From contig JAUCBJ010009046.1 of the NCBI GenBank assembly GCA_032718475.1, positions 31,896-95,895 of the forward strand: 64,000 bases of DNA, given 5' to 3'. Shown in pieces: positions 3,044 to 41,551 of this stretch. The DNA is from Nemertoderma westbladi (Eukaryota > Animalia > Xenacoelomorpha). A model generated the notes under the pieces. It did no database searches, was not told where the DNA came from, and saw only the letters and a list, made by a program, of their open reading frames with translations. Every line of letters starts with the position of its first letter. Position 1 is the first letter of the stretch. A program made the position numbers and the translations under genes.

Positions 3044-3195
3044 CTGTTGTAGACCATTACATCGGGTCGCCAACAGTCGTTTGGGTCGAACGCTGTATGC
3101 GAGATATTAAACTCAGAGAGTTTCCAAGACAACAGTTCATCTGTCCAATATAGCCGATTCCAGACCATAAATTTAACCATTTGGTTTTTTTCATC
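3044..3195 (-). CDS. nAChR-type subunit coding exon 3
   Basis: atttcag acceptor and AG|gtagta donor. Translates DEKNQMVKFMVWNRLYWTDELLSWKLSEFNISHTAFDPNDCWRPDVMVYN(S), with the nAChR DEKNQ and WxPD..YN motifs; 50 codons + 2 nt. Confidence 0.95.
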
Positions 3196-3285
3196 CTGAA
3201 ATAATTAGTCCCGCGATGTTATAGAAACAATGTGATTCAGTTAAACTACTTAATAGAGTTAATAATAAGGGCGATGATAAGTTAA

Positions 3286-6200
3286 GTAAGTCGTCCAATA
3301 ACTTACAACATCTGGTACCATCCGTATGTCATACAATCACTTACAACATCTAGTACCATCCGTATGTCATACAATCACTTACAACATCTAGTACCATCCG
3401 TAAGTCATACAATCACTTACAACATCTAGTACCATCCGTAAGTCATACAATCACTTACAACATCTAGTACCATCCGTAAGTCATATACAATCACTTACAA
3501 CATCTAGTACCATCCGTAAGTCATACAATCACTTACAACATCTAGTACCATCCGTAAGTCATATACAATCACTTACAACATCTAGTACCATCCGTAAGTC
3601 ATACAATCACTTACAACATCTAGTACCATCCGTAAGTCATATACAATCACTTACAACATCTAGTACCATCCGTAAGTCATATACAATCACTTACAACATC
3701 TAGTACCATCCGTAAGTCTATACAATCACTTACAACATCTAGTACCATCCGTAAGTCATATACAATCACTTACAACATCTAGTACCATCCGTAAGTCTAT
3801 ACAATCACTTACAACATCTAGTACCATCCGTAAGTCATATACAATCACTTACAACATCTAGTACCATCCGTAAGTCTATACAATCACTTACAACATCTAG
3901 TACCATCCGTAAGTCATATACAATCACTTACAACATCTAGTACCATCCGTATGTCATACAATCACTTACAACATCTAGTACCATCCGTAAGTCATATACA
4001 ATCACTTACAACATCTAGTACCATCCGTATGTCATACAATCACTTACAACATCTAGTACCATCCGTAAGTCATATACAATCACTTACAACATCTAGTACC
4101 ATCCGTATGTCATACAATCACTTACAACATCTAGTACCATCCGTAAGTCATATACAATCACTTACAACATCTAGTACCATCCGTATGTCATACAATCACT
4201 TACAACATCTAGTACCATCCGTAAGTCATACACAATCACTTACAACATCTAGTACCATCCGTATGTCATACAATCACTTACAACATCTAGTACCATCCGT
4301 ATGTCATACAATCACTTACAACATCTAGTACCATCCGTAAGTCATATACAATCACTTACAACATCTAGTACCATCCGTAAGTCACACAATCACTTACAAC
4401 ATCTAGTACCATCCGTAAGTCATACAATCACTTACAACATCTAGTACCATCCGTATGTCATACAATCACTTACAACATCTAGTACCATCCGTAAGTCATA
4501 CACAATCACTTACAACATCTAGTACCATCCGTATGTCATACAATCACTTACAACATCTAGTACCATCCGTATGTCATACAATCACTTACAACATCTAGTA
4601 CCATCCGTAAGTCATATACAATCACTTACAACATCTAGTACCATCCGTAAGTCACACAATCACTTACAACATCTAGTACCATCCGTAAGTCATACAATCA
4701 CTTACAACATCTAGTACCATCCGTAAGTCATACAATCACTTACAACATCTAGTACCATCCGTAAGTCATATACAATCACTTACAACATCTAGTACCATCC
4801 GTAAGTCATATACAATCACTTACAACATCTAGTACCATCCGTAAGTCATATACAATCACTTACAACATCTAGTACCATCCGTAAGTCATATACAATCACT
4901 TACAACATCTAGTACCATCCGTAAGTCATACAATCACTTACAACATCTAGTACCATCCGTAAGTCATATACAATCACTTACAACATCTAGTACCATCCGT
5001 AAGTCATACAATCACTTACAACATCTAGTACCATCCGTAAGTCATACAATCACTTACAACATCTAGTACCATCCGTAAGTCATATACAATCACTTACAAC
5101 ATCTAGTACCATCCGTAAGTCATATACAATCACTTACAACATCTAGTACCATCCGTAAGTCATATACAATCACTTACAACATCTAGTACCATCCGTAAGT
5201 CATATACAATCACTTACAACATCTAGTACCATCCGTAAGTCATACAATCACTTACAACATCTAGTACCATCCGTAAGTCATACAATCACTTACAACATCT
5301 AGTACCATCCGTAAGTCATACAATCACTTACAACATCTAGTACCATCCGTAAGTCATATACAATCACTTACAACATCTAGTACCATCCGTAAGTCATACA
5401 ATCACTTACAACATCTAGTACCATCCGTAAGTCATACAATCACTTACAACATCTAGTACCATCCGTAAGTCATACAATCACTTACAACATCTAGTACCAT
5501 CCGTAAGTCATACAATCACTTACAACATCTAGTACCATCCGTAAGTCATACAATCACTTACAACATCTAGTACCATCCGTAAGTCATACAATCACTTACA
5601 ACATCTAGTACCATCCGTAAGTCATACAATCACTTACAACATCTAGTACCATCCGTAAGTCATACAATCACTTACAACATCTAGTACCATCCGTAAGTCA
5701 TACAATCACTTACAACATCTAGTACCATCCGTAAGTCATACAATCACTTACAACATCTAGTACCATCCGTAAGTCATACAATCACTTACAACATCTAGTA
5801 CCATCCGTAAGTCATACAATCACTTACAACATCTAGTACCATCCGTAAGTCATACAATCACTTACAACATCTAGTACCATCCGTAAGTCATACAATCACT
5901 TACAACATCTAGTACCATCCGTATGTCATACAATCACTTACAACATCTAGTACCATCCGTAAGTCATATACAATCACTTACAACATCTAGTACCATCCGT
6001 AAGTCATATACAATCACTTACAACATCTAGTACCATCCGTAAGTCATATACAATCACTTACAACATCTAGTACCATCCGTAAGTCATATACAATCACTTA
6101 CAACATCTAGTACCATCCGTAAGTCATATACAATCACTTACAACATCTAGTACCATCCGTAAGTCATATACAATCACTTACAACATCTAGTACCATCCGT

Positions 6201-9200
6201 AAGTCATATACAATCACTTACAACATCTAGTACCATCCGTATGTCATACAATCACTTACAACATCTAGTACCATCCGTATGTCATACAATCACTTACAAC
6301 ATCTAGTACCATCCGTATGTCATACAATCACTTACAACATCTAGTACCATCCGTATGTCATATACAATCACTTACAACATCTAGTACCATCCGTAAGTCG
6401 TCATACAATCACTTACAACATCTAGTACCATCCGTAAGTCATATACAATCACTTACAACATCTAGTACCATCCGTATGTCATACAATCACTTACAACATC
6501 TAGTACCATCCGTAAGTCATATACAATCACTTACAACATCTAGTACCATCCGTAAGTCATATACAATCACTTACAACATCTAGTACCATCCGTAAGTCAT
6601 ATACAATCACTTACAACATCTAGTACCATCCGTAAGTCATACAATCACTTACAACATCTAGTACCATCCGTATGTCATACAATCACTTACAACATCTAGT
6701 ACCATCCGTATGTCATATACAATCACTTACAACATCTAGTACCATCCGTAAGTCATATACAATCACTTACAACATCTAGTACCATCCGTATGTCATACAA
6801 TCACTTACAACATCTAGTACCATCCGTATGTCATATACAATCACTTACAACATCTAGTACCATCCGTATGTCATACAATCACTTACAACATCTAGTACCA
6901 TCCGTATGTCATATACAATCACTTACAACATCTAGTACCATCCGTAAGTCATATACAATCACTTACAACATCTAGTACCATCCGTAAGTCATATACAATC
7001 ACTTACAACATCTAGTACCATCCGTAAGTCATACAATCACTTACAACATCTAGTACCATCCGTAAGTCATACAATCACTTACAACATCTAGTACCATCCG
7101 TATGTCATACAATCACTTACAACATCTAGTACCATCCGTAAGTCATATACAATCACTTACAACATCTAGTACCATCCGTATGTCATATACAATCACTTAC
7201 AACATCTAGTACCATCCGTATGTCATACAATCACTTACAACATCTAGTACCATCCGTAAGTCATACAATCACTTACAACATCTAGTACCATCCGTAAGTC
7301 ATATACAATCACTTACAACATCTAGTACCATCCGTAAGTCATATACAATCACTTACAACATCTAGTACCATCCGTAAGTCATACAATCACTTACAACATC
7401 TAGTACCATCCGTAAGTCATATACAATCACTTACAACATCTAGTACCATCCGTAAGTCATACAATCACTTACAACATCTAGTACCATCCGTAAGTCATAC
7501 AATCACTTACAACATCTAGTACCATCCGTAAGTCATACAATCACTTACAACATCTAGTACCATCCGTAAGTCATATACAATCACTTACAACATCTAGTAC
7601 CATCCGTAAGTCATACAATCACTTACAACATCTAGTACCATCCGTATGTCATACAATCACTTACAACATCTAGTACCATCCGTAAGTCATACAATCACTT
7701 ACAACATCTAGTACCATCCGTAAGTCATATACAATCACTTACAACATCTAGTACCATCCGTAAGTCATATACAATCACTTACAACATCTAGTACCATCCG
7801 TAAGTCATATACAATCACTTACAACATCTAGTACCATCCGTAAGTCATACAATCACTTACAACATCTAGTACCATCCGTAAGTCATATACAATCACTTAC
7901 AACATCTAGTACCATCCGTAAGTCATACAATCACTTACAACATCTAGTACCATCCGTATGTCATACAATCACTTACAACATCTAGTACCATCCGTAAGTC
8001 ATACAATCACTTACAACATCTAGTACCATCCGTAAGTCATATACAATCACTTACAACATCTAGTACCATCCGTAAGTCATATACAATCACTTACAACATC
8101 TAGTACCATCCGTAAGTCATATACAATCACTTACAACATCTAGTACCATCCGTAAGTCATACAATCACTTACAACATCTAGTACCATCCGTAAGTCATAT
8201 ACAATCACTTACAACATCTAGTACCATCCGTAAGTCATACAATCACTTACAACATCTAGTACCATCCGTATGTCATACAATCACTTACAACATCTAGTAC
8301 CATCCGTAAGTCATACAATCACTTACAACATCTAGTACCATCCGTAAGTCATATACAATCACTTACAACATCTAGTACCATCCGTAAGTCATACAATCAC
8401 TTACAACATCTAGTACCATCCGTATGTCATACAATCACTTACAACATCTAGTACCATCCGTATGTCATACAATCACTTACAACATCTAGTACCATCCGTA
8501 AGTCATACAATCACTTACAACATCTAGTACCATCCGTAAGTCATATACAATCACTTACAACATCTAGTACCATCCGTAAGTCATATACAATCACTTACAA
8601 CATCTAGTACCATCCGTAAGTCATATACAATCACTTACAACATCTAGTACCATCCGTAAGTCATACAATCACTTACAACATCTAGTACCATCCGTAAGTC
8701 ATATACAATCACTTACAACATCTAGTACCATCCGTAAGTCATACAATCACTTACAACATCTAGTACCATCCGTATGTCATACAATCACTTACAACATCTA
8801 GTACCATCCGTAAGTCATACAATCACTTACAACATCTAGTACCATCCGTATGTCATACAATCACTTACAACATCTAGTACCATCCGTATGTCATATACAA
8901 TCACTTACAACATCTAGTACCATCCGTAAGTCATACAATCACTTACAACATCTAGTACCATCCGTAAGTCATACAATCACTTACAACATCTAGTACCATC
9001 CGTATGTCATACAATCACTTACAACATCTAGTACCATCCGTATGTCATATACAATCACTTACAACATCTAGTACCATCCGTATGTCATACAATCACTTAC
9101 AACATCTAGTACCATCCGTATGTCATACAATCACTTACAACATCTAGTACCATCCGTAAGTCATATACAATCACTTACAACATCTAGTACCATCCGTATG

Positions 9201-12200
9201 TCATACAATCACTTACAACATCTAGTACCATCCGTAAGTCATACAATCACTTACAACATCTAGTACCATCCGTATGTCATACAATCACTTACAACATCTA
9301 GTACCATCCGTAAGTCATACAATCACTTACAACATCTAGTACCATCCGTAAGTCATATACAATCACTTACAACATCTAGTACCATCCGTAAGTCATATAC
9401 AATCACTTACAACATCTAGTACCATCCGTAAGTCATATACAATCACTTACAACATCTAGTACCATCCGTATGTCATACAATCACTTACAACATCTAGTAC
9501 CATCCGTAAGTCATATACAATCACTTACAACATCTAGTACCATCCGTATGTCATACAATCACTTACAACATCTAGTACCATCCGTAAGTCATACAATCAC
9601 TTACAACATCTAGTACCATCCGTAAGTCATACAATCACTTACAACATCTAGTACCATCCGTAAGTCATATACAATCACTTACAACATCTAGTACCATCCG
9701 TATGTCATACAATCACTTACAACATCTAGTACCATCCGTATGTCATACAATCACTTACAACATCTAGTACCATCCGTAAGTCATATACAATCACTTACAA
9801 CATCTAGTACCATCCGTATGTCATACAATCACTTACAACATCTAGTACCATCCGTATGTCATACAATCACTTACAACATCTAGTACCATCCGTATGTCAT
9901 ACAATCACTTACAACATCTAGTACCATCCGTAAGTCATATACAATCACTTACAACATCTAGTACCATCCGTAAGTCATATACAATCACTTACAACATCTA
10001 GTACCATCCGTATGTCATACAATCACTTACAACATCTAGTACCATCCGTATGTCATACAATCACTTACAACATCTAGTACCATCCGTAAGTCATATACAA
10101 TCACTTACAACATCTAGTACCATCCGTAAGTCATACAATCACTTACAACATCTAGTACCATCCGTAAGTCATACAATCACTTACAACATCTAGTACCATC
10201 CGTAAGTCATATACAATCACTTACAACATCTAGTACCATCCGTAAGTCATACAATCACTTACAACATCTAGTACCATCCGTAAGTCATATACAATCACTT
10301 ACAACATCTAGTACCATCCGTAAGTCATACAATCACTTACAACATCTAGTACCATCCGTAAGTCATACAATCACTTACAACATCTAGTACCATCCGTATG
10401 TCATACAATCACTTACAACATCTAGTACCATCCGTATGTCATACAATCACTTACAACATCTAGTACCATCCGTATGTCATACAATCACTTACAACATCTA
10501 GTACCATCCGTATGTCATACAATCACTTACAACATCTAGTACCATCCGTAAGTCATATACAATCACTTACAACATCTAGTACCATCCGTATGTCATACAA
10601 TCACTTACAACATCTAGTACCATCCGTATGTCATACAATCACTTACAACATCTAGTACCATCCGTAAGTCATACAATCACTTACAACATCTAGTACCATC
10701 CGTAAGTCATATACAATCACTTACAACATCTAGTACCATCCGTAAGTCATATACAATCACTTACAACATCTAGTACCATCCGTATGTCATACAATCACTT
10801 ACAACATCTAGTACCATCCGTATGTCATACAATCACTTACAACATCTAGTACCATCCGTATGTCATACAATCACTTACAACATCTAGTACCATCCGTATG
10901 TCATATACAATCACTTACAACATCTAGTACCATCCGTAAGTCGGTCATACAATCACTTACAACATCTAGTACCATCCGTAAGTCATATACAATCACTTAC
11001 AACATCTAGTACCATCCGTATGTCATACAATCACTTACAACATCTAGTACCATCCGTAAGTCATATACAATCACTTACAACATCTAGTACCATCCGTAAG
11101 TCATATACAATCACTTACAACATCTAGTACCATCCGTAAGTCATATACAATCACTTACAACATCTAGTACCATCCGTAAGTCATACAATCACTTACAACA
11201 TCTAGTACCATCCGTATGTCATACAATCACTTACAACATCTAGTACCATCCGTATGTCATATACAATCACTTACAACATCTAGTACCATCCGTAAGTCAT
11301 ATACAATCACTTACAACATCTAGTACCATCCGTATGTCATACAATCACTTACAACATCTAGTACCATCCGTATGTCATATACAATCACTTACAACATCTA
11401 GTACCATCCGTATGTCATACAATCACTTACAACATCTAGTACCATCCGTATGTCATATACAATCACTTACAACATCTAGTACCATCCGTAAGTCATATAC
11501 AATCACTTACAACATCTAGTACCATCCGTAAGTCATATACAATCACTTACAACATCTAGTACCATCCGTAAGTCATACAATCACTTACAACATCTAGTAC
11601 CATCCGTATGTCATACAATCACTTACAACATCTAGTACCATCCGTATGTCATACAATCACTTACAACATCTAGTACCATCCGTAAGTCATATACAATCAC
11701 TTACAACATCTAGTACCATCCGTATGTCATATACAATCACTTACAACATCTAGTACCATCCGTATGTCATACAATCACTTACAACATCTAGTACCATCCG
11801 TAAGTCATACAATCACTTACAACATCTAGTACCATCCGTAAGTCATATACAATCACTTACAACATCTAGTACCATCCGTAAGTCATATACAATCACTTAC
11901 AACATCTAGTACCATCCGTAAGTCATACAATCACTTACAACATCTAGTACCATCCGTAAGTCATACAATCACTTACAACATCTAGTACCATCCGTAAGTC
12001 ATACAATCACTTACAACATCTAGTACCATCCGTAAGTCATACAATCACTTACAACATCTAGTACCATCCGTATGTCATACAATCACTTACAACATCTAGT
12101 ACCATCCGTATGTCATATACAATCACTTACAACATCTAGTACCATCCGTATGTCATACAATCACTTACAACATCTAGTACCATCCGTATGTCATACAATC

Positions 12201-15200
12201 ACTTACAACATCTAGTACCATCCGTAAGTCATATACAATCACTTACAACATCTAGTACCATCCGTATGTCATACAATCACTTACAACATCTAGTACCATC
12301 CGTAAGTCATACAATCACTTACAACATCTAGTACCATCCGTAAGTCATATACAATCACTTACAACATCTAGTACCATCCGTAAGTCATATACAATCACTT
12401 ACAACATCTAGTACCATCCGTAAGTCATATACAATCACTTACAACATCTAGTACCATCCGTAAGTCATACAATCACTTACAACATCTAGTACCATCCGTA
12501 AGTCATATACAATCACTTACAACATCTAGTACCATCCGTATGTCATACAATCACTTACAACATCTAGTACCATCCGTAAGTCATATACAATCACTTACAA
12601 CATCTAGTACCATCCGTAAGTCATACAATCACTTACAACATCTAGTACCATCCGTAAGTCATATACAATCACTTACAACATCTAGTACCATCCGTATGTC
12701 ATACAATCACTTACAACATCTAGTACCATCCGTATGTCATACAATCACTTACAACATCTAGTACCATCCGTAAGTCATATACAATCACTTACAACATCTA
12801 GTACCATCCGTATGTCATACAATCACTTACAACATCTAGTACCATCCGTATGTCATACAATCACTTACAACATCTAGTACCATCCGTATGTCATACAATC
12901 ACTTACAACATCTAGTACCATCCGTAAGTCATACAATCACTTACAACATCTAGTACCATCCGTAAGTCATATACAATCACTTACAACATCTAGTACCATC
13001 CGTAAGTCATACAATCACTTACAACATCTAGTACCATCCGTAAGTCATATACAATCACTTACAACATCTAGTACCATCCGTAAGTCATACAATCACTTAC
13101 AACATCTAGTACCATCCGTAGTCATACAATCACTTACAACATCTAGTACCATCCGTATGTCATACAATCACTTACAACATCTAGTACCATCCGTATGTCA
13201 TACAATCACTTACAACATCTAGTACCATCCGTAAGTCATATACAATCACTTACAACATCTAGTACCATCCGTAAGTCATACAATCACTTACAACATCTAG
13301 TACCATCCGTAAGTCATACAATCACTTACAACATCTAGTACCATCCGTAAGTCATACAATCACTTACAACATCTAGTACCATCCGTAAGTCATATACAAT
13401 CACTTACAACATCTAGTACCATCCGTATGTCATACACAATCACTTACAACATCTAGTACCATCCGTATGTCATACAATCACTTACAACATCTAGTACCAT
13501 CCGTAAGTCATACAATCACTTACAACATCTAGTACCATCCGTAAGTCATATACAATCACTTACAACATCTAGTACCATCCGTAAGTCATATACAATCACT
13601 TACAACATCTAGTACCATCCGTAAGTCATATACAATCACTTACAACATCTAGTACCATCCGTAAGTCATATACAATCACTTACAACATCTAGTACCATCC
13701 GTAAGTCATATACAATCACTTACAACATCTAGTACCATCCGTAAGTCATATACAATCACTTACAACATCTAGTACCATCCGTAAGTCATATACAATCACT
13801 TACAACATCTAGTACCATCCGTAAGTCATATACAATCACTTACAACATCTAGTACCATCCGTAAGTCATATACAATCACTTACAACATCTAGTACCATCC
13901 GTAAGTCATACAATCACTTACAACATCTAGTACCATCCGTAAGTCATACAATCACTTACAACATCTAGTACCATCCGTAAGTCATATACAATCACTTACA
14001 ACATCTAGTACCATCCGTAAGTCACACAATCACTTACAACATCTAGTACCATCCGTAAGTCATACAATCACTTACAACATCTAGTACCATCCGTATGTCA
14101 TACAATCACTTACAACATCTAGTACCATCCGTATGTCATACAATCACTTACAACATCTAGTACCATCCGTAAGTCATATACAATCACTTACAACATCTAG
14201 TACCATCCGTAAGTCATATACAATCACTTACAACATCTAGTACCATCCGTAAGTCATACAATCACTTACAACATCTAGTACCATCCGTAAGTCATATACA
14301 ATCACTTACAACATCTAGTACCATCCGTATGTCACACAATCACTTACAACATCTAGTACCATCCGTAAGTCATATACAATCACTTACAACATCTAGTACC
14401 ATCCGTAAGTCATATACAATCACTTACAACATCTAGTACCATCCGTATGTCACACAATCACTTACAACATCTAGTACCATCCGTAAGTCATATACAATCA
14501 CTTACAACATCTAGTACCATCCGTATGTCACACAATCACTTACAACATCTAGTACCATCCGTATGTCACACAATCACTTACAACATCTAGTACCATCCGT
14601 ATGTCACACAATCACTTACAACATCTAGTACCATCCGTATGTCATACAATCACTTACAACATCTAGTACCATCCGTATGTCACACAATCACTTACAACAT
14701 CTAGTACCATCCGTAAGTCATATACAATCACTTACAACATCTAGTACCATCCGTATGTCACACAATCACTTACAACATCTAGTACCATCCGTATGTCATA
14801 CAATCACTTACAACATCTAGTACCATCCGTAAGTCATACAATCACTTACAACATCTAGTACCATCCGTATGTCATACAATCACTTACAACATCTAGTACC
14901 ATCCGTATGTCATACAATCACTTACAACATCTAGTACCATCCGTAAGTCATACAATCACTTACAACATCTAGTACCATCCGTATGTCATACAATCACTTA
15001 CAACATCTAGTACCATCCGTAAGTCATACAATCACTTACAACATCTAGTACCATCCGTAAGTCATATACAATCACTTACAACATCTAGTACCATCCGTAA
15101 GTCACACAATCACTTACAACATCTAGTACCATCCGTATGTCATACAATCACTTACAACATCTAGTACCATCCGTAAGTCATACAATCACTTACAACATCT

Positions 15201-18200
15201 AGTACCATCCGTAAGTCACACAATCACTTACAACATCTAGTACCATCCGTAAGTCATATACAATCACTTACAACATCTAGTACCATCCGTATGTCATACA
15301 ATCACTTACAACATCTAGTACCATCCGTATGTCATACAATCACTTACAACATCTAGTACCATCCGTAAGTCATATACAATCACTTACAACATCTAGTACC
15401 ATCCGTAAGTCATATACAATCACTTACAACATCTAGTACCATCCGTAAGTCATATACAATCACTTACAACATCTAGTACCATCCGTAAGTCATATACAAT
15501 CACTTACAACATCTAGTACCATCCGTAAGTCATATACAATCACTTACAACATCTAGTACCATCCGTAAGTCATATACAATCACTTACAACATCTAGTACC
15601 ATCCGTAAGTCATATACAATCACTTACAACATCTAGTACCATCCGTAAGTCATATACAATCACTTACAACATCTAGTACCATCCGTAAGTCATATACAAT
15701 CACTTACAACATCTAGTACCATCCGTATGTCATACAATCACTTACAACATCTAGTACCATCCGTAAGTCATATACAATCACTTACAACATCTAGTACCAT
15801 CCGTAAGTCATATACAATCACTTACAACATCTAGTACCATCCGTATGTCATACAATCACTTACAACATCTAGTACCATCCGTATGTCATATACAATCACT
15901 TACAACATCTAGTACCATCCGTATGTCATACAATCACTTACAACATCTAGTACCATCCGTATGTCATACAATCACTTACAACATCTAGTACCATCCGTAT
16001 GTCATACAATCACTTACAACATCTAGTACCATCCGTATGTCATACAATCACTTACAACATCTAGTACCATCCGTAAGTCATATACAATCACTTACAACAT
16101 CTAGTACCATCCGTATGTCATACAATCACTTACAACATCTAGTACCATCCGTATGTCATACAATCACTTACAACATCTAGTACCATCCGTATGTCATACA
16201 ATCACTTACAACATCTAGTACCATCCGTATGTCATACAATCACTTACAACATCTAGTACCATCCGTATGTCATACAATCACTTACAACATCTAGTACCAT
16301 CCGTAAGTCATATACAATCACTTACAACATCTAGTACCATCCGTATGTCATACAATCACTTACAACATCTAGTACCATCCGTATGTCATATACAATCACT
16401 TACAACATCTAGTACCATCCGTATGTCATACAATCACTTACAACATCTAGTACCATCCGTAAGTCATACAATCACTTACAACATCTAGTACCATCCGTAA
16501 GTCATATACAATCACTTACAACATCTAGTACCATCCGTAAGTCATATACAATCACTTACAACATCTAGTACCATCCGTATGTCATACAATCACTTACAAC
16601 ATCTAGTACCATCCGTAAGTCATATACAATCACTTACAACATCTAGTACCATCCGTAAGTCATATACAATCACTTACAACATCTAGTACCATCCGTAAGT
16701 CATACAATCACTTACAACATCTAGTACCATCCGTAAGTCATACAATCACTTACAACATCTAGTACCATCCGTAAGTCATACAATCACTTACAACATCTAG
16801 TACCATCCGTAAGTCATACAATCACTTACAACATCTAGTACCATCCGTATGTCATACAATCACTTACAACATCTAGTACCATCCGTATGTCATACAATCA
16901 CTTACAACATCTAGTACCATCCGTATGTCATATACAATCACTTACAACATCTAGTACCATCCGTATGTCATACAATCACTTACAACATCTAGTACCATCC
17001 GTATGTCATACAATCACTTACAACATCTAGTACCATCCGTATGTCATACAATCACTTACAACATCTAGTACCATCCGTATGTCATACAATCACTTACAAC
17101 ATCTAGTACCATCCGTAAGTCATATACAATCACTTACAACATCTAGTACCATCCGTATGTCATACAATCACTTACAACATCTAGTACCATCCGTATGTCA
17201 TACAATCACTTACAACATCTAGTACCATCCGTATGTCATACAATCACTTACAACATCTAGTACCATCCGTATGTCATACAATCACTTACAACATCTAGTA
17301 CCATCCGTATGTCATATACAATCACTTACAACATCTAGTACCATCCGTATGTCATACAATCACTTACAACATCTAGTACCATCCGTATGTCATACAATCA
17401 CTTACAACATCTAGTACCATCCGTATGTCATACAATCACTTACAACATCTAGTACCATCCGTATGTCATACAATCACTTACAACATCTAGTACCATCCGT
17501 AAGTCATATACAATCACTTACAACATCTAGTACCATCCGTATGTCATACAATCACTTACAACATCTAGTACCATCCGTATGTCATACAATCACTTACAAC
17601 ATCTAGTACCATCCGTATGTCATACAATCACTTACAACATCTAGTACCATCCGTATGTCATACAATCACTTACAACATCTAGTACCATCCGTATGTCATA
17701 TACAATCACTTACAACATCTAGTACCATCCGTATGTCATACAATCACTTACAACATCTAGTACCATCCGTATGTCATACAATCACTTACAACATCTAGTA
17801 CCATCCGTAAGTCATATACAATCACTTACAACATCTAGTACCATCCGTAAGTCATACAATCACTTACAACATCTAGTACCATCCGTAAGTCATACAATCA
17901 CTTACAACATCTAGTACCATCCGTATGTCATACAATCACTTACAACATCTAGTACCATCCGTAAGTCATACAATCACTTACAACATCTAGTACCATCCGT
18001 ATGTCATACAATCACTTACAACATCTAGTACCATCCGTATGTCATACAATCACTTACAACATCTAGTACCATCCGTATGTCATATACAATCACTTACAAC
18101 ATCTAGTACCATCCGTATGTCATACAATCACTTACAACATCTAGTACCATCCGTATGTCATACAATCACTTACAACATCTAGTACCATCCGTATGTCATA

Positions 18201-21200
18201 TACAATCACTTACAACATCTAGTACCATCCGTATGTCATACAATCACTTACAACATCTAGTACCATCCGTATGTCATACAATCACTTACAACATCTAGTA
18301 CCATCCGTATGTCATATACAATCACTTACAACATCTAGTACCATCCGTATGTCATACAATCACTTACAACATCTAGTACCATCCGTATGTCATACAATCA
18401 CTTACAACATCTAGTACCATCCGTAAGTCATATACAATCACTTACAACATCTAGTACCATCCGTAAGTCATACAATCACTTACAACATCTAGTACCATCC
18501 GTATGTCATACAATCACTTACAACATCTAGTACCATCCGTAAGTCATACAATCACTTACAACATCTAGTACCATCCGTATGTCATACAATCACTTACAAC
18601 ATCTAGTACCATCCGTATGTCATACAATCACTTACAACATCTAGTACCATCCGTATGTCATATACAATCACTTACAACATCTAGTACCATCCGTATGTCA
18701 TACAATCACTTACAACATCTAGTACCATCCGTATGTCATACAATCACTTACAACATCTAGTACCATCCGTAAGTCATATACAATCACTTACAACATCTAG
18801 TACCATCCGTAAGTCATACAATCACTTACAACATCTAGTACCATCCGTAAGTCATATACAATCACTTACAACATCTAGTACCATCCGTAAGTCATACAAT
18901 CACTTACAACATCTAGTACCATCCGTAAGTCATACAATCACTTACAACATCTAGTACCATCCGTAAGTCATATACAATCACTTACAACATCTAGTACCAT
19001 CCGTAAGTCATACAATCACTTACAACATCTAGTACCATCCGTATGTCATACAATCACTTACAACATCTAGTACCATCCGTATGTCATACAATCACTTACA
19101 ACATCTAGTACCATCCGTATGTCATACAATCACTTACAACATCTAGTACCATCCGTAAGTCATACAATCACTTACAACATCTAGTACCATCCGTAAGTCA
19201 TACAATCACTTACAACATCTAGTACCATCCGTATGTCATACAATCACTTACAACATCTAGTACCATCCGTATGTCATACAATCACTTACAACATCTAGTA
19301 CCATCCGTAAGTCATATACAATCACTTACAACATCTAGTACCATCCGTAAGTCATACAATCACTTACAACATCTAGTACCATCCGTAAGTCATACAATCA
19401 CTTACAACATCTAGTACCATCCGTAAGTCATACAATCACTTACAACATCTAGTACCATCCGTAAGTCATATACAATCACTTACAACATCTAGTACCATCC
19501 GTATGTCATACACAATCACTTACAACATCTAGTACCATCCGTATGTCATACAATCACTTACAACATCTAGTACCATCCGTAAGTCATACAATCACTTACA
19601 ACATCTAGTACCATCCGTAAGTCATATACAATCACTTACAACATCTAGTACCATCCGTAAGTCATATACAATCACTTACAACATCTAGTACCATCCGTAA
19701 GTCATATACAATCACTTACAACATCTAGTACCATCCGTAAGTCATATACAATCACTTACAACATCTAGTACCATCCGTAAGTCATATACAATCACTTACA
19801 ACATCTAGTACCATCCGTAAGTCATATACAATCACTTACAACATCTAGTACCATCCGTAAGTCATATACAATCACTTACAACATCTAGTACCATCCGTAA
19901 GTCATATACAATCACTTACAACATCTAGTACCATCCGTAAGTCATATACAATCACTTACAACATCTAGTACCATCCGTAAGTCACACAATCACTTACAAC
20001 ATCTAGTACCATCCGTAAGTCATACAATCACTTACAACATCTAGTACCATCCGTAAGTCATATACAATCACTTACAACATCTAGTACCATCCGTAAGTCA
20101 TACAATCACTTACAACATCTAGTACCATCCGTAAGTCATACAATCACTTACAACATCTAGTACCATCCGTATGTCATACAATCACTTACAACATCTAGTA
20201 CCATCCGTATGTCATACAATCACTTACAACATCTAGTACCATCCGTAAGTCATATACAATCACTTACAACATCTAGTACCATCCGTAAGTCATATACAAT
20301 CACTTACAACATCTAGTACCATCCGTAAGTCATACAATCACTTACAACATCTAGTACCATCCGTAAGTCATATACAATCACTTACAACATCTAGTACCAT
20401 CCGTATGTCACACAATCACTTACAACATCTAGTACCATCCGTAAGTCATATACAATCACTTACAACATCTAGTACCATCCGTAAGTCATATACAATCACT
20501 TACAACATCTAGTACCATCCGTATGTCACACAATCACTTACAACATCTAGTACCATCCGTAAGTCATATACAATCACTTACAACATCTAGTACCATCCGT
20601 ATGTCACACAATCACTTACAACATCTAGTACCATCCGTATGTCACACAATCACTTACAACATCTAGTACCATCCGTATGTCACACAATCACTTACAACAT
20701 CTAGTACCATCCGTATGTCATACAATCACTTACAACATCTAGTACCATCCGTATGTCACACAATCACTTACAACATCTAGTACCATCCGTAAGTCATATA
20801 CAATCACTTACAACATCTAGTACCATCCGTATGTCACACAATCACTTACAACATCTAGTACCATCCGTATGTCATACAATCACTTACAACATCTAGTACC
20901 ATCCGTAAGTCATACAATCACTTACAACATCTAGTACCATCCGTATGTCATACAATCACTTACAACATCTAGTACCATCCGTATGTCATACAATCACTTA
21001 CAACATCTAGTACCATCCGTAAGTCATACAATCACTTACAACATCTAGTACCATCCGTATGTCATACAATCACTNNNNNNNNNNNNNNNNNNNNNNNNNN
21101 NNNNNNNNNNNNNNNNNNNNNNNNNNNNNNNNNNNNNNNNNNNNNNNNNNNNNNNNNNNNNNNNNNNNNNNNNNCAATCACTTACAACATCTAGTACCAT

Positions 21201-24200
21201 CCGTATGTCATACAATCACTTACAACATCTAGTACCATCCGTAAGTCATACAATCACTTACAACATCTAGTACCATCCGTAAGTCATACAATCACTTACA
21301 ACATCTAGTACCATCCGTATGTCATACAATCACTTACAACATCTAGTACCATCCGTAAGTCATACAATCACTTACAACATCTAGTACCATCCGTATGTCA
21401 TACAATCACTTACAACATCTAGTACCATCCGTATGTCATACAATCACTTACAACATCTAGTACCATCCGTAAGTCATATACAATCACTTACAACATCTAG
21501 TACCATCCGTAAGTCATATACAATCACTTACAACATCTAGTACCATCCGTAAGTCATATACAATCACTTACAACATCTAGTACCATCCGTAAGTCATACA
21601 ATCACTTACAACATCTAGTACCATCCGTATGTCATACAATCACTTACAACATCTAGTACCATCCGTAAGTCATATACAATCACTTACAACATCTAGTACC
21701 ATCCGTAAGTCATACAATCACTTACAACATCTAGTACCATCCGTAAGTCATACAATCACTTACAACATCTAGTACCATCCGTAAGTCATACAATCACTTA
21801 CAACATCTAGTACCATCCGTAAGTCATACAATCACTTACAACATCTAGTACCATCCGTAAGTCATACAATCACTTACAACATCTAGTACCATCCGTAAGT
21901 CATATACAATCACTTACAACATCTAGTACCATCCGTAAGTCATATACAATCACTTACAACATCTAGTACCATCCGTATGTCATACAATCACTTACAACAT
22001 CTAGTACCATCCGTAAGTCATATACAATCACTTACAACATCTAGTACCATCCGTATGTCATACAATCACTTACAACATCTAGTACCATCCGTAAGTCATA
22101 TACAATCACTTACAACATCTAGTACCATCCGTAAGTCATATACAATCACTTACAACATCTAGTACCATCCGTAAGTCATACAATCACTTACAACATCTAG
22201 TACCATCCGTAAGTCATACAATCACTTACAACATCTAGTACCATCCGTAAGTCATACAATCACTTACAACATCTAGTACCATCCGTAAGTCATATCAATC
22301 ACTTACAACATCTAGTACCATCCGTAAGTCATATACAATCACTTACAACATCTAGTACCATCCGTAAGTCATATACAATCACTTACAACATCTAGTACCA
22401 TCCGTAAGTCATATACAATCACTTACAACATCTAGTACCATCCGTAAGTCATACAATCACTTACAACATCTAGTACCATCCGTAAGTCATACAATCACTT
22501 ACAACATCTAGTACCATCCGTAAGTCATACAATCACTTACAACATCTAGTACCATCCGTAAGTCATATACAATCACTTACAACATCTAGTACCATCCGTA
22601 AGTCATACAATCACTTACAACATCTAGTACCATCCGTAAGTCATACAATCACTTACAACATCTAGTACCATCCGTATGTCATACAATCACTTACAACATC
22701 TAGTACCATCCGTAAGTCATACAATCACTTACAACATCTAGTACCATCCGTAAGTCATACAATCACTTACAACATCTAGTACCATCCGTAAGTCATACAA
22801 TCACTTACAACATCTAGTACCATCCGTAAGTCATACAATCACTTACAACATCTAGTACCATCCGTATGTCATACAATCACTTACAACATCTAGTACCATC
22901 CGTAAGTCATACAATCACTTACAACATCTAGTACCATCCGTAAGTCATATACAATCACTTACAACATCTAGTACCATCCGTAAGTCATATACAATCACTT
23001 ACAACATCTAGTACCATCCGTAAGTCATATACAATCACTTACAACATCTAGTACCATCCGTAAGTCATACAATCACTTACAACATCTAGTACCATCCGTA
23101 AGTCATATACAATCACTTACAACATCTAGTACCATCCGTAAGTCATACAATCACTTACAACATCTAGTACCATCCGTAAGTCATATACAATCACTTACAA
23201 CATCTAGTACCATCCGTAAGTCATATACAATCACTTACAACATCTAGTACCATCCGTAAGTCATACAATCACTTACAACATCTAGTACCATCCGTAAGTC
23301 ATACAATCACTTACAACATCTAGTACCATCCGTAAGTCATACAATCACTTACAACATCTAGTACCATCCGTAAGTCATATACAATCACTTACAACATCTA
23401 GTACCATCCGTAAGTCATATACAATCACTTACAACATCTAGTACCATCCGTAAGTCATACAATCACTTACAACATCTAGTACCATCCGTAAGTCATACAA
23501 TCACTTACAACATCTAGTACCATCCGTAAGTCATATACAATCACTTACAACATCTAGTACCATCCGTAAGTCATACAATCACTTACAACATCTAGTACCA
23601 TCCGTAAGTCATATACAATCACTTACAACATCTAGTACCATCCGTAAGTCATATACAATCACTTACAACATCTAGTACCATCCGTAAGTCATACAATCAC
23701 TTACAACATCTAGTACCATCCGTAAGTCATATACAATCACTTACAACATCTAGTACCATCCGTAAGTCATACAATCACTTACAACATCTAGTACCATCCG
23801 TAAGTCATATACAATCACTTACAACATCTAGTACCATCCGTAAGTCATACAATCACTTACAACATCTAGTACCATCCGTAAGTCATACAATCACTTACAA
23901 CATCTAGTACCATCCGTAAGTCATACAATCACTTACAACATCTAGTACCATCCGTAAGTCATACAATCACTTACAACATCTAGTACCATCCGTAAGTCAT
24001 ATACAATCACTTACAACATCTAGTACCATCCGTAAGTCATACAATCACTTACAACATCTAGTACCATCCGTAAGTCATATACAATCACTTACAACATCTA
24101 GTACCATCCGTAAGTCATATACAATCACTTACAACATCTAGTACCATCCGTAAGTCATATACAATCACTTACAACATCTAGTACCATCCGTAAGTCATAC

Positions 24201-27200
24201 AATCACTTACAACATCTAGTACCATCCGTATGTCATACAATCACTTACAACATCTAGTACCATCCGTAAGTCATATACAATCACTTACAACATCTAGTAC
24301 CATCCGTAAGTCATACAATCACTTACAACATCTAGTACCATCCGTAAGTCATATACAATCACTTACAACATCTAGTACCATCCGTAAGTCATATACAATC
24401 ACTTACAACATCTAGTACCATCCGTAAGTCATATACAATCACTTACAACATCTAGTACCATCCGTAAGTCATATACAATCACTTACAACATCTAGTACCA
24501 TCCGTAAGTCATATACAATCACTTACAACATCTAGTACCATCCGTAAGTCATATACAATCACTTACAACATCTAGTACCATCCGTAAGTCATATACAATC
24601 ACTTACAACATCTAGTACCATCCGTATGTCATACAATCACTTACAACATCTAGTACCATCCGTAAGTCATATACAATCACTTACAACATCTAGTACCATC
24701 CGTAAGTCATATACAATCACTTACAACATCTAGTACCATCCGTATGTCATACAATCACTTACAACATCTAGTACCATCCGTAAGTCATATACAATCACTT
24801 ACAACATCTAGTACCATCCGTATGTCATACAATCACTTACAACATCTAGTACCATCCGTAAGTCATACAATCACTTACAACATCTAGTACCATCCGTATG
24901 TCATACAATCACTTACAACATCTAGTACCATCCGTAAGTCATATACAATCACTTACAACATCTAGTACCATCCGTAAGTCATATACAATCACTTACAACA
25001 TCTAGTACCATCCGTAAGTCATACAATCACTTACAACATCTAGTACCATCCGTATGTCATACAATCACTTACAACATCTAGTACCATCCGTAAGTCATAC
25101 AATCACTTACAACATCTAGTACCATCCGTAAGTCATACAATCACTTACAACATCTAGTACCATCCGTAAGTCATATACAATCACTTACAACATCTAGTAC
25201 CATCCGTAAGTCATATACAATCACTTACAACATCTAGTACCATCCGTAAGTCATATACAATCACTTACAACATCTAGTACCATCCGTAAGTCATACAATC
25301 ACTTACAACATCTAGTACCATCCGTAAGTCATATACAATCACTTACAACATCTAGTACCATCCGTATGTCATACAATCACTTACAACATCTAGTACCATC
25401 CGTAAGTCATATACAATCACTTACAACATCTAGTACCATCCGTAAGTCATATACAATCACTTACAACATCTAGTACCATCCGTATGTCATACAATCACTT
25501 ACAACATCTAGTACCATCCGTAAGTCATACAATCACTTACAACATCTAGTACCATCCGTAAGTCATACAATCACTTACAACATCTAGTACCATCCGTAAG
25601 TCATATACAATCACTTACAACATCTAGTACCATCCGTAAGTCATATACAATCACTTACAACATCTAGTACCATCCGTAAGTCATACAATCACTTACAACA
25701 TCTAGTACCATCCGTAAGTCATATACAATCACTTACAACATCTAGTACCATCCGTATGTCATACAATCACTTACAACATCTAGTACCATCCGTAAGTCAT
25801 ATACAATCACTTACAACATCTAGTACCATCCGTATGTCATACAATCACTTACAACATCTAGTACCATCCGTAAGTCATATACAATCACTTACAACATCTA
25901 GTACCATCCGTAAGTCATATACAATCACTTACAACATCTAGTACCATCCGTAAGTCATACAATCACTTACAACATCTAGTACCATCCGTAAGTCATACAA
26001 TCACTTACAACATCTAGTACCATCCGTATGTCATACAATCACTTACAACATCTAGTACCATCCGTAAGTCATATACAATCACTTACAACATCTAGTACCA
26101 TCCGTAAGTCATATACAATCACTTACAACATCTAGTACCATCCGTAAGTCATACAATCACTTACAACATCTAGTACCATCCGTAAGTCATATACAATCAC
26201 TTACAACATCTAGTACCATCCGTAAGTCATACAATCACTTACAACATCTAGTACCATCCGTAAGTCATACAATCACTTACAACATCTAGTACCATCCGTA
26301 AGTCATATACAATCACTTACAACATCTAGTACCATCCGTAAGTCATACAATCACTTACAACATCTAGTACCATCCGTAAGTCATATACAATCACTTACAA
26401 CATCTAGTACCATCCGTAAGTCATATACAATCACTTACAACATCTAGTACCATCCGTAAGTCATACAATCACTTACAACATCTAGTACCATCCGTAAGTC
26501 ATATACAATCACTTACAACATCTAGTACCATCCGTAAGTCATACAATCACTTACAACATCTAGTACCATCCGTAAGTCATATACAATCACTTACAACATC
26601 TAGTACCATCCGTAAGTCATATACAATCACTTACAACATCTAGTACCATCCGTAAGTCATATACAATCACTTACAACATCTAGTACCATCCGTAAGTCAT
26701 ACAATCACTTACAACATCTAGTACCATCCGTATGTCATACAATCACTTACAACATCTAGTACCATCCGTAAGTCATATACAATCACTTACAACATCTAGT
26801 ACCATCCGTAAGTCATACAATCACTTACAACATCTAGTACCATCCGTAAGTCATATACAATCACTTACAACATCTAGTACCATCCGTAAGTCATACAATC
26901 ACTTACAACATCTAGTACCATCCGTAAGTCATATACAATCACTTACAACATCTAGTACCATCCGTAAGTCGTCATACAATCACTTACAACATCTAGTACC
27001 ATCCGTATGTCATACAATCACTTACAACATCTAGTACCATCCGTAAGTCATATACAATCACTTACAACATCTAGTACCATCCGTAAGTCATATACAATCA
27101 CTTACAACATCTAGTACCATCCGTAAGTCATACAATCACTTACAACATCTAGTACCATCCGTATGTCATATACAATCACTTACAACATCTAGTACCATCC

Positions 27201-30200
27201 GTAAGTCATACAATCACTTACAACATCTAGTACCATCCGTAAGTCATATACAATCACTTACAACATCTAGTACCATCCGTAAGTCATATACAATCACTTA
27301 CAACATCTAGTACCATCCGTATGTCATATACAATCACTTACAACATCTAGTACCATCCGTAAGTCATACAATCACTTACAACATCTAGTACCATCCGTAA
27401 GTCATATACAATCACTTACAACATCTAGTACCATCCGTAAGTCATACAATCACTTACAACATCTAGTACCATCCGTAAGTCATATACAATCACTTACAAC
27501 ATCTAGTACCATCCGTAAGTCATATACAATCACTTACAACATCTAGTACCATCCGTAAGTCATATACAATCACTTACAACATCTAGTACCATCCGTAAGT
27601 CATACAATCACTTACAACATCTAGTACCATCCGTAAGTCATATACAATCACTTACAACATCTAGTACCATCCGTAAGTCGTCATACAATCACTTACAACA
27701 TCTAGTACCATCCGTAAGTCATATACAATCACTTACAACATCTAGTACCATCCGTAAGTCATACAATCACTTACAACATCTAGTACCATCCGTAAGTCAT
27801 ATACAATCACTTACAACATCTAGTACCATCCGTAAGTCATACAATCACTTACAACATCTAGTACCATCCGTATGTCATATACAATCACTTACAACATCTA
27901 GTACCATCCGTAAGTCATATACAATCACTTACAACATCTAGTACCATCCGTAAGTCATATACAATCACTTACAACATCTAGTACCATCCGTAAGTCGGTC
28001 ATACAATCACTTACAACATCTAGTACCATCCGTATGTCATATACAATCACTTACAACATCTAGTACCATCCGTAAGTCGTCATACAATCACTTACAACAT
28101 CTAGTACCATCCGTATGTCATATACAATCACTTACAACATCTAGTACCATCCGTAAGTCGTCATACAATCACTTACAACATCTAGTACCATCCGTAAGTC
28201 ATATACAATCACTTACAACATCTAGTACCATCCGTAAGTCATACAATCACTTACAACATCTAGTACCATCCGTAAGTCATATACAATCACTTACAACATC
28301 TAGTACCATCCGTAAGTCATACAATCACTTACAACATCTAGTACCATCCGTATGTCATATACAATCACTTACAACATCTAGTACCATCCGTAAGTCATAT
28401 ACAATCACTTACAACATCTAGTACCATCCGTAAGTCATATACAATCACTTACAACATCTAGTACCATCCGTAAGTCATACAATCACTTACAACATCTAGT
28501 ACCATCCGTAAGTCATATACAATCACTTACAACATCTAGTACCATCCGTAAGTCATATACAATCACTTACAACATCTAGTACCATCCGTAAGTCATACAA
28601 TCACTTACAACATCTAGTACCATCCGTAAGTCATACAATCACTTACAACATCTAGTACCATCCGTAAGTCATACAATCACTTACAACATCTAGTACCATC
28701 CGTAAGTCATACAATCACTTACAACATCTAGTACCATCCGTAAGTCATACAATCACTTACAACATCTAGTACCATCCGTAAGTCATATACAATCACTTAC
28801 AACATCTAGTACCATCCGTAAGTCATATACAATCACTTACAACATCTAGTACCATCCGTAAGTCATACAATCACTTACAACATCTAGTACCATCCGTAAG
28901 TCATATACAATCACTTACAACATCTAGTACCATCCGTAAGTCATATACAATCACTTACAACATCTAGTACCATCCGTAAGTCATATACAATCACTTACAA
29001 CATCTAGTACCATCCGTAAGTCATATACAATCACTTACAACATCTAGTACCATCCGTATGTCATATACAATCACTTACAACATCTAGTACCATCCGTAAG
29101 TCATATACAATCACTTACAACATCTAGTACCATCCGTATGTCATATACAATCACTTACAACATCTAGTACCATCCGTAAGTCATATACAATCACTTACAA
29201 CATCTAGTACCATCCGTAAGTCATATACAATCACTTACAACATCTAGTACCATCCGTATGTCATATACAATCACTTACAACATCTAGTACCATCCGTAAG
29301 TCATATACAATCACTTACAACATCTAGTACCATCCGTAAGTCATACAATCACTTACAACATCTAGTACCATCCGTAAGTCATATACAATCACTTACAACA
29401 TCTAGTACCATCCGTAAGTCATATACAATCACTTACAACATCTAGTACCATCCGTAAGTCATACAATCACTTACAACATCTAGTACCATCCGTATGTCAT
29501 ATACAATCACTTACAACATCTAGTACCATCCGTATGTCATATACAATCACTTACAACATCTAGTACCATCCGTAAGTCATATACAATCACTTACAACATC
29601 TAGTACCATCCGTATGTCATATACAATCACTTACAACATCTAGTACCATCCGTAAGTCATATACAATCACTTACAACATCTAGTACCATCCGTATGTCAT
29701 ATACAATCACTTACAACATCTAGTACCATCCGTAAGTCATACAATCACTTACAACATCTAGTACCATCCGTAAGTCATATACAATCACTTACAACATCTA
29801 GTACCATCCGTAAGTCATACAATCACTTACAACATCTAGTACCATCCGTAAGTCATATACAATCACTTACAACATCTAGTACCATCCGTAAGTCATACAA
29901 TCACTTACAACATCTAGTACCATCCGTATGTCATATACAATCACTTACAACATCTAGTACCATCCGTATGTCATATACAATCACTTACAACATCTAGTAC
30001 CATCCGTAAGTCATATACAATCACTTACAACATCTAGTACCATCCGTATGTCATATACAATCACTTACAACATCTAGTACCATCCGTAAGTCATATACAA
30101 TCACTTACAACATCTAGTACCATCCGTATGTCATATACAATCACTTACAACATCTAGTACCATCCGTAAGTCATACAATCACTTACAACATCTAGTACCA

Positions 30201-32477
30201 TCCGTAAGTCATATACAATCACTTACAACATCTAGTACCATCCGTAAGTCATACAATCACTTACAACATCTAGTACCATCCGTAAGTCATATACAATCAC
30301 TTACAACATCTAGTACCATCCGTAAGTCATACAATCACTTACAACATCTAGTACCATCCGTAAGTCATATACAATCACTTACAACATCTAGTACCATCCG
30401 TAAGTCATATACAATCACTTACAACATCTAGTACCATCCGTAAGTCATACAATCACTTACAACATCTAGTACCATCCGTAAGTCATACAATCACTTACAA
30501 CATCTAGTACCATCCGTAAGTCATACAATCACTTACAACATCTAGTACCATCCGTAAGTCATACAATCACTTACAACATTTAGTACCATCCGTAAGTCAT
30601 ACAATCACTTACAACATCTAGTACCATCCGTAAGTCATATACAATCACTTACAACATCTAGTACCATCCGTAAGTCATATACAATCACTTACAACATCTA
30701 GTACCATCCGTAAGTCATACAATCACTTACAACATCTAGTACCATCCGTAAGTCATATACAATCACTTACAACATCTAGTACCATCCGTAAGTCATACAA
30801 TCACTTACAACATCTAGTACCATCCGTAAGTCATACAATCACTTACAACATCTAGTACCATCCGTAAGTCATATACAATCACTTACAACATCTAGTACCA
30901 TCCGTAAGTCATATACAATCACTTACAACATCTAGTACCATCCGTAAGTCATACAATCACTTACAACATCTAGTACCATCCGTAAGTCATATACAATCAC
31001 TTACAACATCTAGTACCATCCGTAAGTCATACAATCACTTACAACATCTAGTACCATCCGTATGTCATATACAATCACTTACAACATCTAGTACCATCCG
31101 TAAGTCATATACAATCACTTACAACATTTAGTACCATCCGTAAGTCATATACAATCACTTACAACATCTAGTACCATCCGTAAGTCATATACAATCACTT
31201 ACAACATCTAGTACCATCCGTAAGTCATATACAATCACTTACAACATCTAGTACCATCCGTAAGTCATATACAATCACTTACAACATCTAGTACCATCCG
31301 TAAGTCACACAATCACTTACAACATCTAGTACCATCCGTAAGTCATATACAATCACTTACAACATCTAGTACCATCCGTAAGTCATACAATCACTTACAA
31401 CATCTAGTACCATCCGTAAGTCATACAATCACTTACAACATCTAGTACCATCCGTAAGTCACACAATCACTTACAACATCTAGTACCATCCGTAAGTCAT
31501 ATACAATCACTTACAACATCTAGTACCATCCGTAAGTCATACAATCACTTACAACATCTAGTACCATCCGTAAGTCATACAATCACTTACAACATCTAGT
31601 ACCATCCGTAAGTCATATACAATCACTTACAACATCTAGTACCATCCGTAAGTCATACAATCACTTACAACATCTAGTACCATCCGTAAGTCATATACAA
31701 TCACTTACAACATCTAGTACCATCCGTAAGTCATATACAATCACTTACAACATCTAGTACCATCCGTAAGTCATATACAATCACTTACAACATCTAGTAC
31801 CATCCGTAAGTCATATACAATCACTTACAACATCTAGTACCATCCGTAAGTCATATACAATCACTTACAACATCTAGTACCATCCGTATTTCATACAATC
31901 ACTTACAACATCTAGTACCATCCGTAAGTCATATACAATCACTTACAACATCTAGTACCATCCGTATTTCATACAATCACTTACAACATCTAGTACCATC
32001 CGTAAGTCATATACAATCACTTACAACATCTAGTACCATCCGTAAGTCATATACAATCACTTACAACATCTAGTACCATCCGTATTTCATACAATCACTT
32101 ACAACATCTAGTACCATCCGTAAGTCATATACAATCACTTACAACATCTAGTACCATCCGTAAGTCATATACAATCACTTACAACATCTAGTACCATCCG
32201 TATTTCATACAATCACTTACAACATCTAGTACCATCCGTAAGTCATATACAATCACTTACAACATCTAGTACCATCCGTAAGTCATATACAATCACTTAC
32301 AACATCTAGTACCATCCGTAAGTCATATACAATCACTGACAACATCTAGTACCATCCGTAAGTCATATACAATCACTTACAACATCTAGTACCATCCGTA
32401 AGTCATATACAATCACTTACAACATCTAGTACCATCCGTAAGTCATATACAATCACTTACAACATCTAGTACCATCC
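3286..32477 (-). repeat. ~29-kb satellite of 38/40-bp units (~750 copies) filling intron 2; unit = last 17 nt of exon 2 + GTAAGT donor + 15-17 further intron nt
   Basis: Plus-strand unit ACTTACAACATCTAGTACCATCCGTAWGTCAT(AT)ACAATC. The right end runs directly into exon 2 (…GGATGGTACTAGATGTT|gtaagt). Contains an assembly gap, so true length is unknown. Confidence 0.97.
21075..21174. other. Assembly gap (100 N) inside the satellite
   Basis: Run of n characters. Confidence 1.
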
Positions 32478-32594
32478 TCAGAGACATGTCAATGACAACA
32501 TTGACGGGATTGTTCTGGTCAACAACCGGTCTGATTCTGGGATTGTATCTCCCGCCCTGAAACAATTTCTCGTAGAGACGACCCAAATCTTTAT
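32461..32594 (-). CDS. nAChR-type subunit coding exon 2
   Basis: tttaatag acceptor and gtaagt donor. Translates (N)KDLGRLYEKLFQGGRYNPRIRPVVDQNNPVNVVIDMSLRMVLDV, the typical L..Y....RPV.....V.V..SL..LDV segment; phase-0 intron before DEKNQ as in other nAChR genes. Confidence 0.93.
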
Positions 32595-32635
32595 CTATTA
32601 AATATAATAATCAAGGCAGGGCTAGATTGTAAGAT

Positions 32636-35100: not shown

Positions 35101-35580
35101 ATAAGATTACGTTGTGGAACAAATTTAATTTCGACGGTACAGTGTAGTTACGATTATATATCAGAGACAATAATAAGTGTTACGTAAAGCTGCTATACTC
35201 TGCCTTTGAAAAAGTAATTTATTCTAAAAACTCAAAAGATTTAGGTGTATTATTAAATAATGGAATCATTCACAAGATGAATGAATTAGCTTCACTTGTT
35301 ATGATAACATCTGATATTCAGGGATATATACTTGCTTTCTACTAATTAATCTCATTCTCCAAGATGCGTATTGCACTGCAAGAAATGACAAAATACTGTA
35401 ATAATTTATGCTGTCCCATACAAAGGAACCCCAACTCGTTCTAAGCCATCGATGCATAGATATAAGCGCTATAAAACACTTAATAAAGATAAATTCAAAA
35501 AAAGAAAAAATCTTCATATATAAAATTCCAATAAAAGGTCGACCGAGAAGTGAAATCCTGGTAATCTTCACATGTTGGGC

Positions 35581-41543: not shown

Positions 41544-41551
41544 TTCCCCCC
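41544..41551 (-). other. Polypurine tract GGGGGGAA (a second copy lies at ~41584-41591)
   Basis: Directly abuts the 3' LTR on the element's sense strand. Confidence 0.8.

Follow-up and report, generated by a model that had tools for sequence, protein, structure and literature searches.

How can a gene find the end of an exon when the intron that follows consists of hundreds of copies of that same exon end? The question is raised by a receptor gene of Nemertoderma westbladi (assembly GCA_032718475.1), which lies on the minus strand of the window analysed here, a 64,000-nt stretch of contig JAUCBJ010009046.1 (31,896-95,895, forward); all coordinates below are window positions. Its exons are named A, B and C here, the earlier labels exon 2 and exon 3 having been inferred. 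Between exons A and B lies an array of 747 tandem units, in which the end of exon A and its donor are repeated. We consider it probable that this array arose from one 38-40-bp duplication across the exon-intron boundary and then expanded to some 750 copies in the absence of selection, and that the gene is still spliced from its first donor, with the few nearest copies competing.

The donor-spanning array and its receptor gene

Tandem Repeats Finder (TRF) reported a period of 38, 750 copies and 96% matches over 3286-32477, and splitting this stretch on the gene (minus) strand yielded 747 units of 37-42 bp in 19 variants, with 734 of the units being 38 or 40 bp long. The original prediction of a ~29-kb intron made of ~750 copies of an exon end and its donor was thus borne out. 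Each unit comprises the last 17 nt of exon A (which, from 32477, form the start of the first unit), the donor GTAAGT and a 14-19-nt spacer. The exon end and donor match across all 23 nt in 743 of the 747 units, GTAAGT occurs 746 times in the array, and the unit was found nowhere else in the 64-kb window. The repeat layout first described holds, but three features of the locus had been missed: the divergence of the last copy, a second array at 1484-2447, and a 100-N scaffold gap at 21075-21174 that divides the main array into 288 units adjoining exon A and 458 units towards exon B, so that copy number and length refer to the assembled array. No overlap of the two parts was detected across the gap, the longest shared block being 11 units (shuffle maximum 12). 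Within the array, a block of 47 units reappears 157 units away with 2 differences and one of 35 units 117 units away with 3, and the longest exact repeat spans 24 units, as compared with at most 12 in 30 shuffles; these internal duplications of multi-kb blocks have the look of genuine unequal exchange.

The presumed authentic donor, GTT/GTAAGT at 32455-32460 (minus strand; the slash marks the junction), is the first of the 747, and it alone leaves the reading frame open. Beyond it, unit 1 reads GTA AGT GAT TGT ATA TGA in frame, with the TGA at 32445-32443. When eight donors including the first were tested, donors 2-8 all yielded this same stop five residues beyond exon A, confirming that use of a downstream donor brings in a stop; exon A would measure 134 nt with donor 1 and 174-294 nt with donors 2-5. 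The fourth donor, GTCAGT at 32335-32340 (minus), is the sole donor-core mutant among the 747 units, probably an edge effect. Unit 1 also contains the hexamer ACTTAC (32438-32443, minus), the reverse complement of the donor, which overlaps the TGA. ACTTAC is the stretch of U1 that pairs with donors. It is present in 521 of 746 junctions and missing from 225, four of them in the first 20 units, and has been retained by 244 of the 288 units between exon A and the gap, versus 277 of 457 past it. The hexamer likely predates the array, because it is present in the diverged last copy as well.

The far end of the intron (3196-3306, minus) consists of this diverged last copy and residual intron. Measured from the GT of the last donor (3301-3306) to the AG of the exon-B acceptor (3196-3197), 111 nt remain, in agreement with the proximity first noted, and this 111-nt remnant with its acceptor is likely the ancestral intron. 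One half of the unit corresponds to the exon end and the other to the beginning of this remnant, which supports the proposed expansion of a small intron through a tandem duplication across the donor; the claimed inflation of more than 250-fold is also reproduced (29,265/111 = 264), a figure that applies to the assembled length only. Compared with the closest main variant, the last copy has changed at 4 of 38 positions, and exon A has Leu where the last copy has Pro, at a position where the aligned homologs are hydrophobic. Searching the gene strand of the array revealed 0 poly(A) signals. There was no sign that selection keeps the pseudo-donors perfect, substitution events being about as many in the exon and donor part as in the spacer.

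Exon A (32461-32594, minus; 134 nt, phase 1 to phase 0) is preceded by AG and followed by GT, and encodes part of a nicotinic acetylcholine receptor (nAChR)-like Cys-loop subunit (Pfam PF02931 positions 3-40, E 1.6e-05). Exon B (3044-3195, minus; 152 nt, DEKNQ...WRPDVMVYN) continues the domain (PF02931 41-91, E 4.9e-09), has alpha7, acetylcholine-binding protein (AChBP) and 5-HT3A chains as its best PDB matches, and ends at a weak donor, GTAGTA. Exon C (2412-2586, minus; 175 nt) carries the Cys loop and the loop-B tryptophan (PF02931 109-151, E 1.3e-11), with nAChR alpha chains as best PDB matches. Spliced in silico, A, B and C form 459 nt with 0 stops and collinear matches to PF02931 (Neur_chan_LBD), so the flanking exons are intact and in phase, as had been stated. 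Judged by its sequence, with a Neur_chan_LBD containing the Cys loop, the gene appears to encode a divergent subunit of a Cys-loop (nAChR-like) pentameric ligand-gated channel. The downstream contig itself has the end of exon A before exon B, and the Pfam positions abut, so that A and B would be parts of a single gene or of paralogs that are nearly identical. A tblastn search of the window with 23 homologs recovered only A, B and C, the rest of the gene (its 3′ part) lying beyond the window; exons for the loop-C cysteines of the alpha type and for the four transmembrane helices would be located past the window start. A profile-free search with exon B gave 86 matches, the best at 48% identity, and a word search among proteins of 101-2000 aa found no relatives of exon C; the host animal thus appears divergent, no protein set searched having offered a close relative (best identities 48% for exon B and 37% for RNase H2B). 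A simple scan for a signal-peptide exon 1 gave five candidates, one of them at 46819-46912 (minus) with a hydrophobic start and a phase-1 GTAAGT donor.

The second donor-spanning array follows exon C (1484-2447, minus) and contains 22 copies of a 44-bp unit built from the last 33 nt of the exon, ending in AAG, and the donor (AAG/GTGAGT). Its 21 AAAG/GT sites comprise 17 GTGAGT, 3 GTGGTA and 1 GTAAGT, and in sequencing run X1 its summed depth is about 23-26 times that of single-copy sequence. Of the receptor gene's three visible donors, two have thus been amplified into arrays.

Precedents and the choice of donor

The locus had been taken to imply a first-donor selection rule, donor masking or stepwise removal, with nonsense-mediated decay clearing errors. 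No new rule is called for: first-donor use has already been demonstrated experimentally for human F7, and donor-spanning arrays in four more human genes and the amphioxus mirages have been published. Intron 7 of F7 contains a 37-bp variable number tandem repeat (VNTR) whose unit spans the exon 7 donor, with 5-9 copies that are all able to work (PMC1557585). Experiments on it showed that splicing is confined to the functional donor lying farthest upstream, and that use drops and skipping rises with distance from the exon (PMC1557585). As in the main array, the first F7 unit lies across the exon-intron boundary, identical donors follow at similar spacing (37 vs 38-40 bp), and internal donors would mostly give stops. 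The F7 array differs in having 5-9 units with 4 exon bases each, against 747 assembled units with 17 over ~29 kb here. Its splicing was measured, whereas ours is predicted from DNA, and the F7 authors saw no masking structure, whereas one is predicted in most units here.

The same source summarises arrays in 6-16 (25 pseudo-sites), CBS intron 13 (15-20 units), LMNB2 (10-15) and PDGF intron 4 (16-18) (PMC1557585). These too are donor-spanning minisatellites in working genes, with the first or the first three donors used, and the main array has ~30 times the copy number of the largest among them. PMC1557585 cites a CBS paper whose title describes a second-repeat change preventing alternative splicing. 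In amphioxus, mirage minisatellites occur in globin and Adh3 genes and left normal splicing undisturbed in RT-PCR (PMC3087553). Like the main array, mirages are invertebrate exon-intron boundary duplications with concerted evolution and diverged edge units; mirages differ in length between haplotypes with normal splicing kept, the globin cases having 3-6 units in contrast to the satellite scale seen here.

A first unit across the boundary, unchanged repeated donors and concerted evolution with a diverged edge place the main array among such donor-spanning minisatellites. The kind is thus already known (F7-type VNTR or mirage), and what sets this case apart is its size, the occurrence of a second array in the same gene, and the hexamer antisense to the donor. 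The repeats in the satellite-filled giant introns of Drosophila Y genes are not known to be donor copies. Those introns have likewise been inflated by tandem DNA, to hundreds of kb to Mb (PMC6508621, PMC11207136). No published array of comparable size was found in the open-access literature, a search that does not establish ours as the largest. The gain lies therefore in scale and not in principle, the host gene being a putative working receptor gene. If the intron is spliced cleanly, the first-donor rule would extend from 5-25 human copies to a distant animal with ~750 copies over 29 kb, and the locus would offer a natural test of first-come selection, as in F7, against the downstream-donor bias at 30-45 nt spacing. 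That bias was described in human cells, in which the downstream of two strong donors took nearly all splicing once they were at least 45 nt apart, the shift beginning near 30 nt; lower U1 activity weakens it (PMC3413131). The two arrays contrast suitably for such a test, with weak hairpin-forming donors 38-40 nt apart in one and strong unmasked donors 44-45 nt apart in the other.

The origin that we propose is supported by the unit itself, which joins exon end, donor and intron start, and from the first and last copies, which connect to exon A and the intron remnant. Growth would have proceeded by slippage and unequal exchange, as suggested by the block duplications, the variant gradient, the diverged edge copy and the tandem arrays making up 71% of the window. 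By analogy with human F7, an exon between long introns would be defined from its acceptor. Donors 1-5, with donor 4 mutated, would then be in range, while the other ~740, having no acceptor in reach, would act as ordinary intronic pseudo-donors, so that the choice is likely among a handful and not among hundreds. Within this handful U1 occupancy is predicted to be low, through the lack of exon-side pairing and a hairpin with the antisense hexamer in most units, and low occupancy would weaken the pull towards downstream donors. The predicted donor-U1 duplex measures -6.2 kcal/mol for the exon-A donor versus -12.6 for the exon-C donor, and the lack of exon-side pairing at the exon-A donor fits low occupancy. 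Rare slips to a downstream donor would keep the unit-1 stop, and such transcripts would presumably be degraded.

Several points weigh against this account, in which splicing from the first donor is a prediction. The 38-40-nt spacing falls within the range where human assays shift to the downstream donor. The exon-C array, with 44-45-nt spacing, a strong donor and no hairpin excess, would be at risk of downstream use and is the weaker point. The precedents are mammalian and cephalochordate and the host animal is divergent; among them, 6-16 and CBS also use the next two pseudo-donors. Intact exons do not prove function, since 3-70% of simulated genes under neutral decay stayed intact, depending on the assumed age. 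Finally, the depth support from X1 and X2 is not fully independent, both being possible sources of the window DNA.

Alternative explanations

The strongest competitor, less likely but to be taken seriously, is a receptor paralog that is dying or already dead, its splicing crippled by the two donor arrays or the arrays having expanded freely once the gene was silent. The presence of two independent donor arrays in one gene speaks for it, as do the weak exon-B donor GTAGTA and the location of the remainder of the gene outside the window. The main array is also very uniform (743/747 perfect over 23 nt), hence young, and may be too young for exon decay to show; neutral decay of up to about 1-2.5% could have left the exons intact. 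On the other hand, frame, phase, GT/AG ends and family residues are kept in all three exons, and exon A retains Leu at the hydrophobic homolog position where the last copy has Pro. In the neutral-decay simulation the share of intact genes fell from 70% at 1% substitutions to 3% at 5% substitutions with indels, which does not decide function. The contigs of sample S2 show two single-base differences, at 2729 and 3216, both intronic; this also points away from a dead gene but is weak, with a chance of ~0.4 by length alone.

It is improbable, in our view, that the gene works but leaks, with donors 2, 3, 5 or the last donor taking a real share, the unit-1 stop sending these transcripts to decay, and array length or make-up tuning expression. 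Such leakage would resemble 6-16 and CBS, in which the summary reports use of the next two pseudo-donors, and would accord with the downstream-donor bias of the human assays (PMC3413131). When folding was predicted for 12 of the 747 donors at emergence (8 nt), donors 2 and 3 were more open than donor 1, with an opening cost of 0.4 versus 2.1 kcal/mol; array make-up also seems to differ between X1 and X3. In contrast, only the first donor is reported to be used in F7, LMNB2 and PDGF, and the last donor was the most masked of those sampled at emergence (7.3 kcal/mol).

Donor masking had been among the proposals of the original prediction, and folding predicts it for part of the copies but equally for the real donor. 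In the two commonest units the predicted cost of opening the donor was 7.4 and 7.9 kcal/mol, as compared with 3.2 and 3.6 for shuffled sequences (reached by 2 and 3 of 100), while the next two variants were not masked beyond shuffles (59 and 11 of 100), nor was the exon-C unit (56/100). The exon-A junction region has a predicted fold z of -2.84, and the real donor costs 6.3-9.0 kcal/mol to open once 25-40 nt follow. Masking may thus lower the decoy load in these models but does not select the first donor. A privileged window for donor 1 before the hairpin forms was also considered and is unsupported, donors 2-3 being more open among the 12 sampled.

We regard as unlikely the bolder proposal of a working gene whose array, the largest described of its kind with ~750 perfect donors over 29 kb, is tolerated through the self-folding hexamer, a built-in U1 mimic that would have removed the ceiling on array growth; on this reading, receptor expression would differ between individuals with the mix of unit variants. 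Very unlikely is a self-masking array in which the hexamer silences the pseudo-donors and U1 catches the real donor before its hairpin forms. The abundance of ACTTAC (521/746 junctions), its better retention on the exon side (244/288 vs 277/457), the shuffle comparison of the two commonest units and the junction z value are all in its favour. Against it, the real donor is masked as strongly and is no more open than donors 2-3 at emergence, the hexamer is absent from 225 of 746 junctions, four of them within the first 20 units, and present in the diverged last copy, the exon-C array lacks a masking excess, and F7 needs no masking.

Introns removed by recursive splicing contain AG/GT sites with a pyrimidine tract inside the intron. 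Each unit does contain a donor and, five nt before the cut site, an AG, but stepwise removal through the array, as suggested earlier, deserves next to no credence, with 0 AGGT in the array and both unit AGs standing after purine-rich sequence without a pyrimidine tract.

Assembly support and the tandem-rich neighbourhood

To the possibility that the array is an assembly artefact of only a few units we attach scarcely any weight. A scaffold gap does lie inside it and no contig was seen spanning it. However, for words of five array contigs the depth in run X1, divided by the single-copy depth of 21, came to 571, 578, 473, 147 and 272, while the corresponding words occur 518, 728, 510, 181 and 207 times in the window; these depths are hundreds of times single copy and agree with the assembled counts within about 30%. 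X1 is a possible source of the assembly, yet read depth still checks the assembler layout. In X2 and X3 (one sample, one other study) the array stood tens to hundreds of times above single copy, X2 being likewise flagged as a possible source and depth being a rough measure. The 19 ordered variants, the imperfect block duplications and the lack of overlap between the gap sides likewise argue that an assembly artefact is unlikely. In two X3 contigs depth reached 31-44 versus 175 in the window and 74-102 versus 291, a quarter to a third, while X1 approximates the window; from so rough a measure this is a hint that array length or make-up differs between individuals.

In X1 and X2, one contig each covers most or all of 3196-3306 together with exons B and C, and one X2 contig extends into 32478-32488. 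Among the contigs listed, none from X1, X2 or X3 covered 32489-32631 (most of exon A), a hole that proves nothing because the filter drops records.

The window holds 14 tandem arrays over 45,678 of its 64,000 bases (71%). A 46-bp array of 53 copies (32636-35101) ends 41 nt before the exon-A acceptor and has 51 GTRAGT words on the gene strand; judged by eye, it has no coding exon at its upstream end. Within the intron after exon C, a 33-bp array (1-255) runs past the window start. One 31-bp minisatellite family occurs at 35611-35871 (in opposite orientation), 36880-37870, 40678-41369 and 45755-46251, and a 467-bp two-copy repeat (38420-39383) lies between its copies. Inserted in the same family is a long terminal repeat (LTR) retroelement (41369-45757) with identical 175-bp LTRs (41369-41543 and 45583-45757), a target duplication of 5 bp and, on the minus strand, open frames 298 and 1027 codons long, indicating a very recent insertion. 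A 54-bp array is split by a ~490-bp insert (58275-58764) with terminal inverted repeats and, by eye, an apparent TAA duplication, which resembles a miniature inverted-repeat transposable element. Farther on, at 59437-60384 (plus strand), lies an intronless gene for RNase H2 subunit B (PF09468 and PF17745), with at most 37% identity to its 65 matches.

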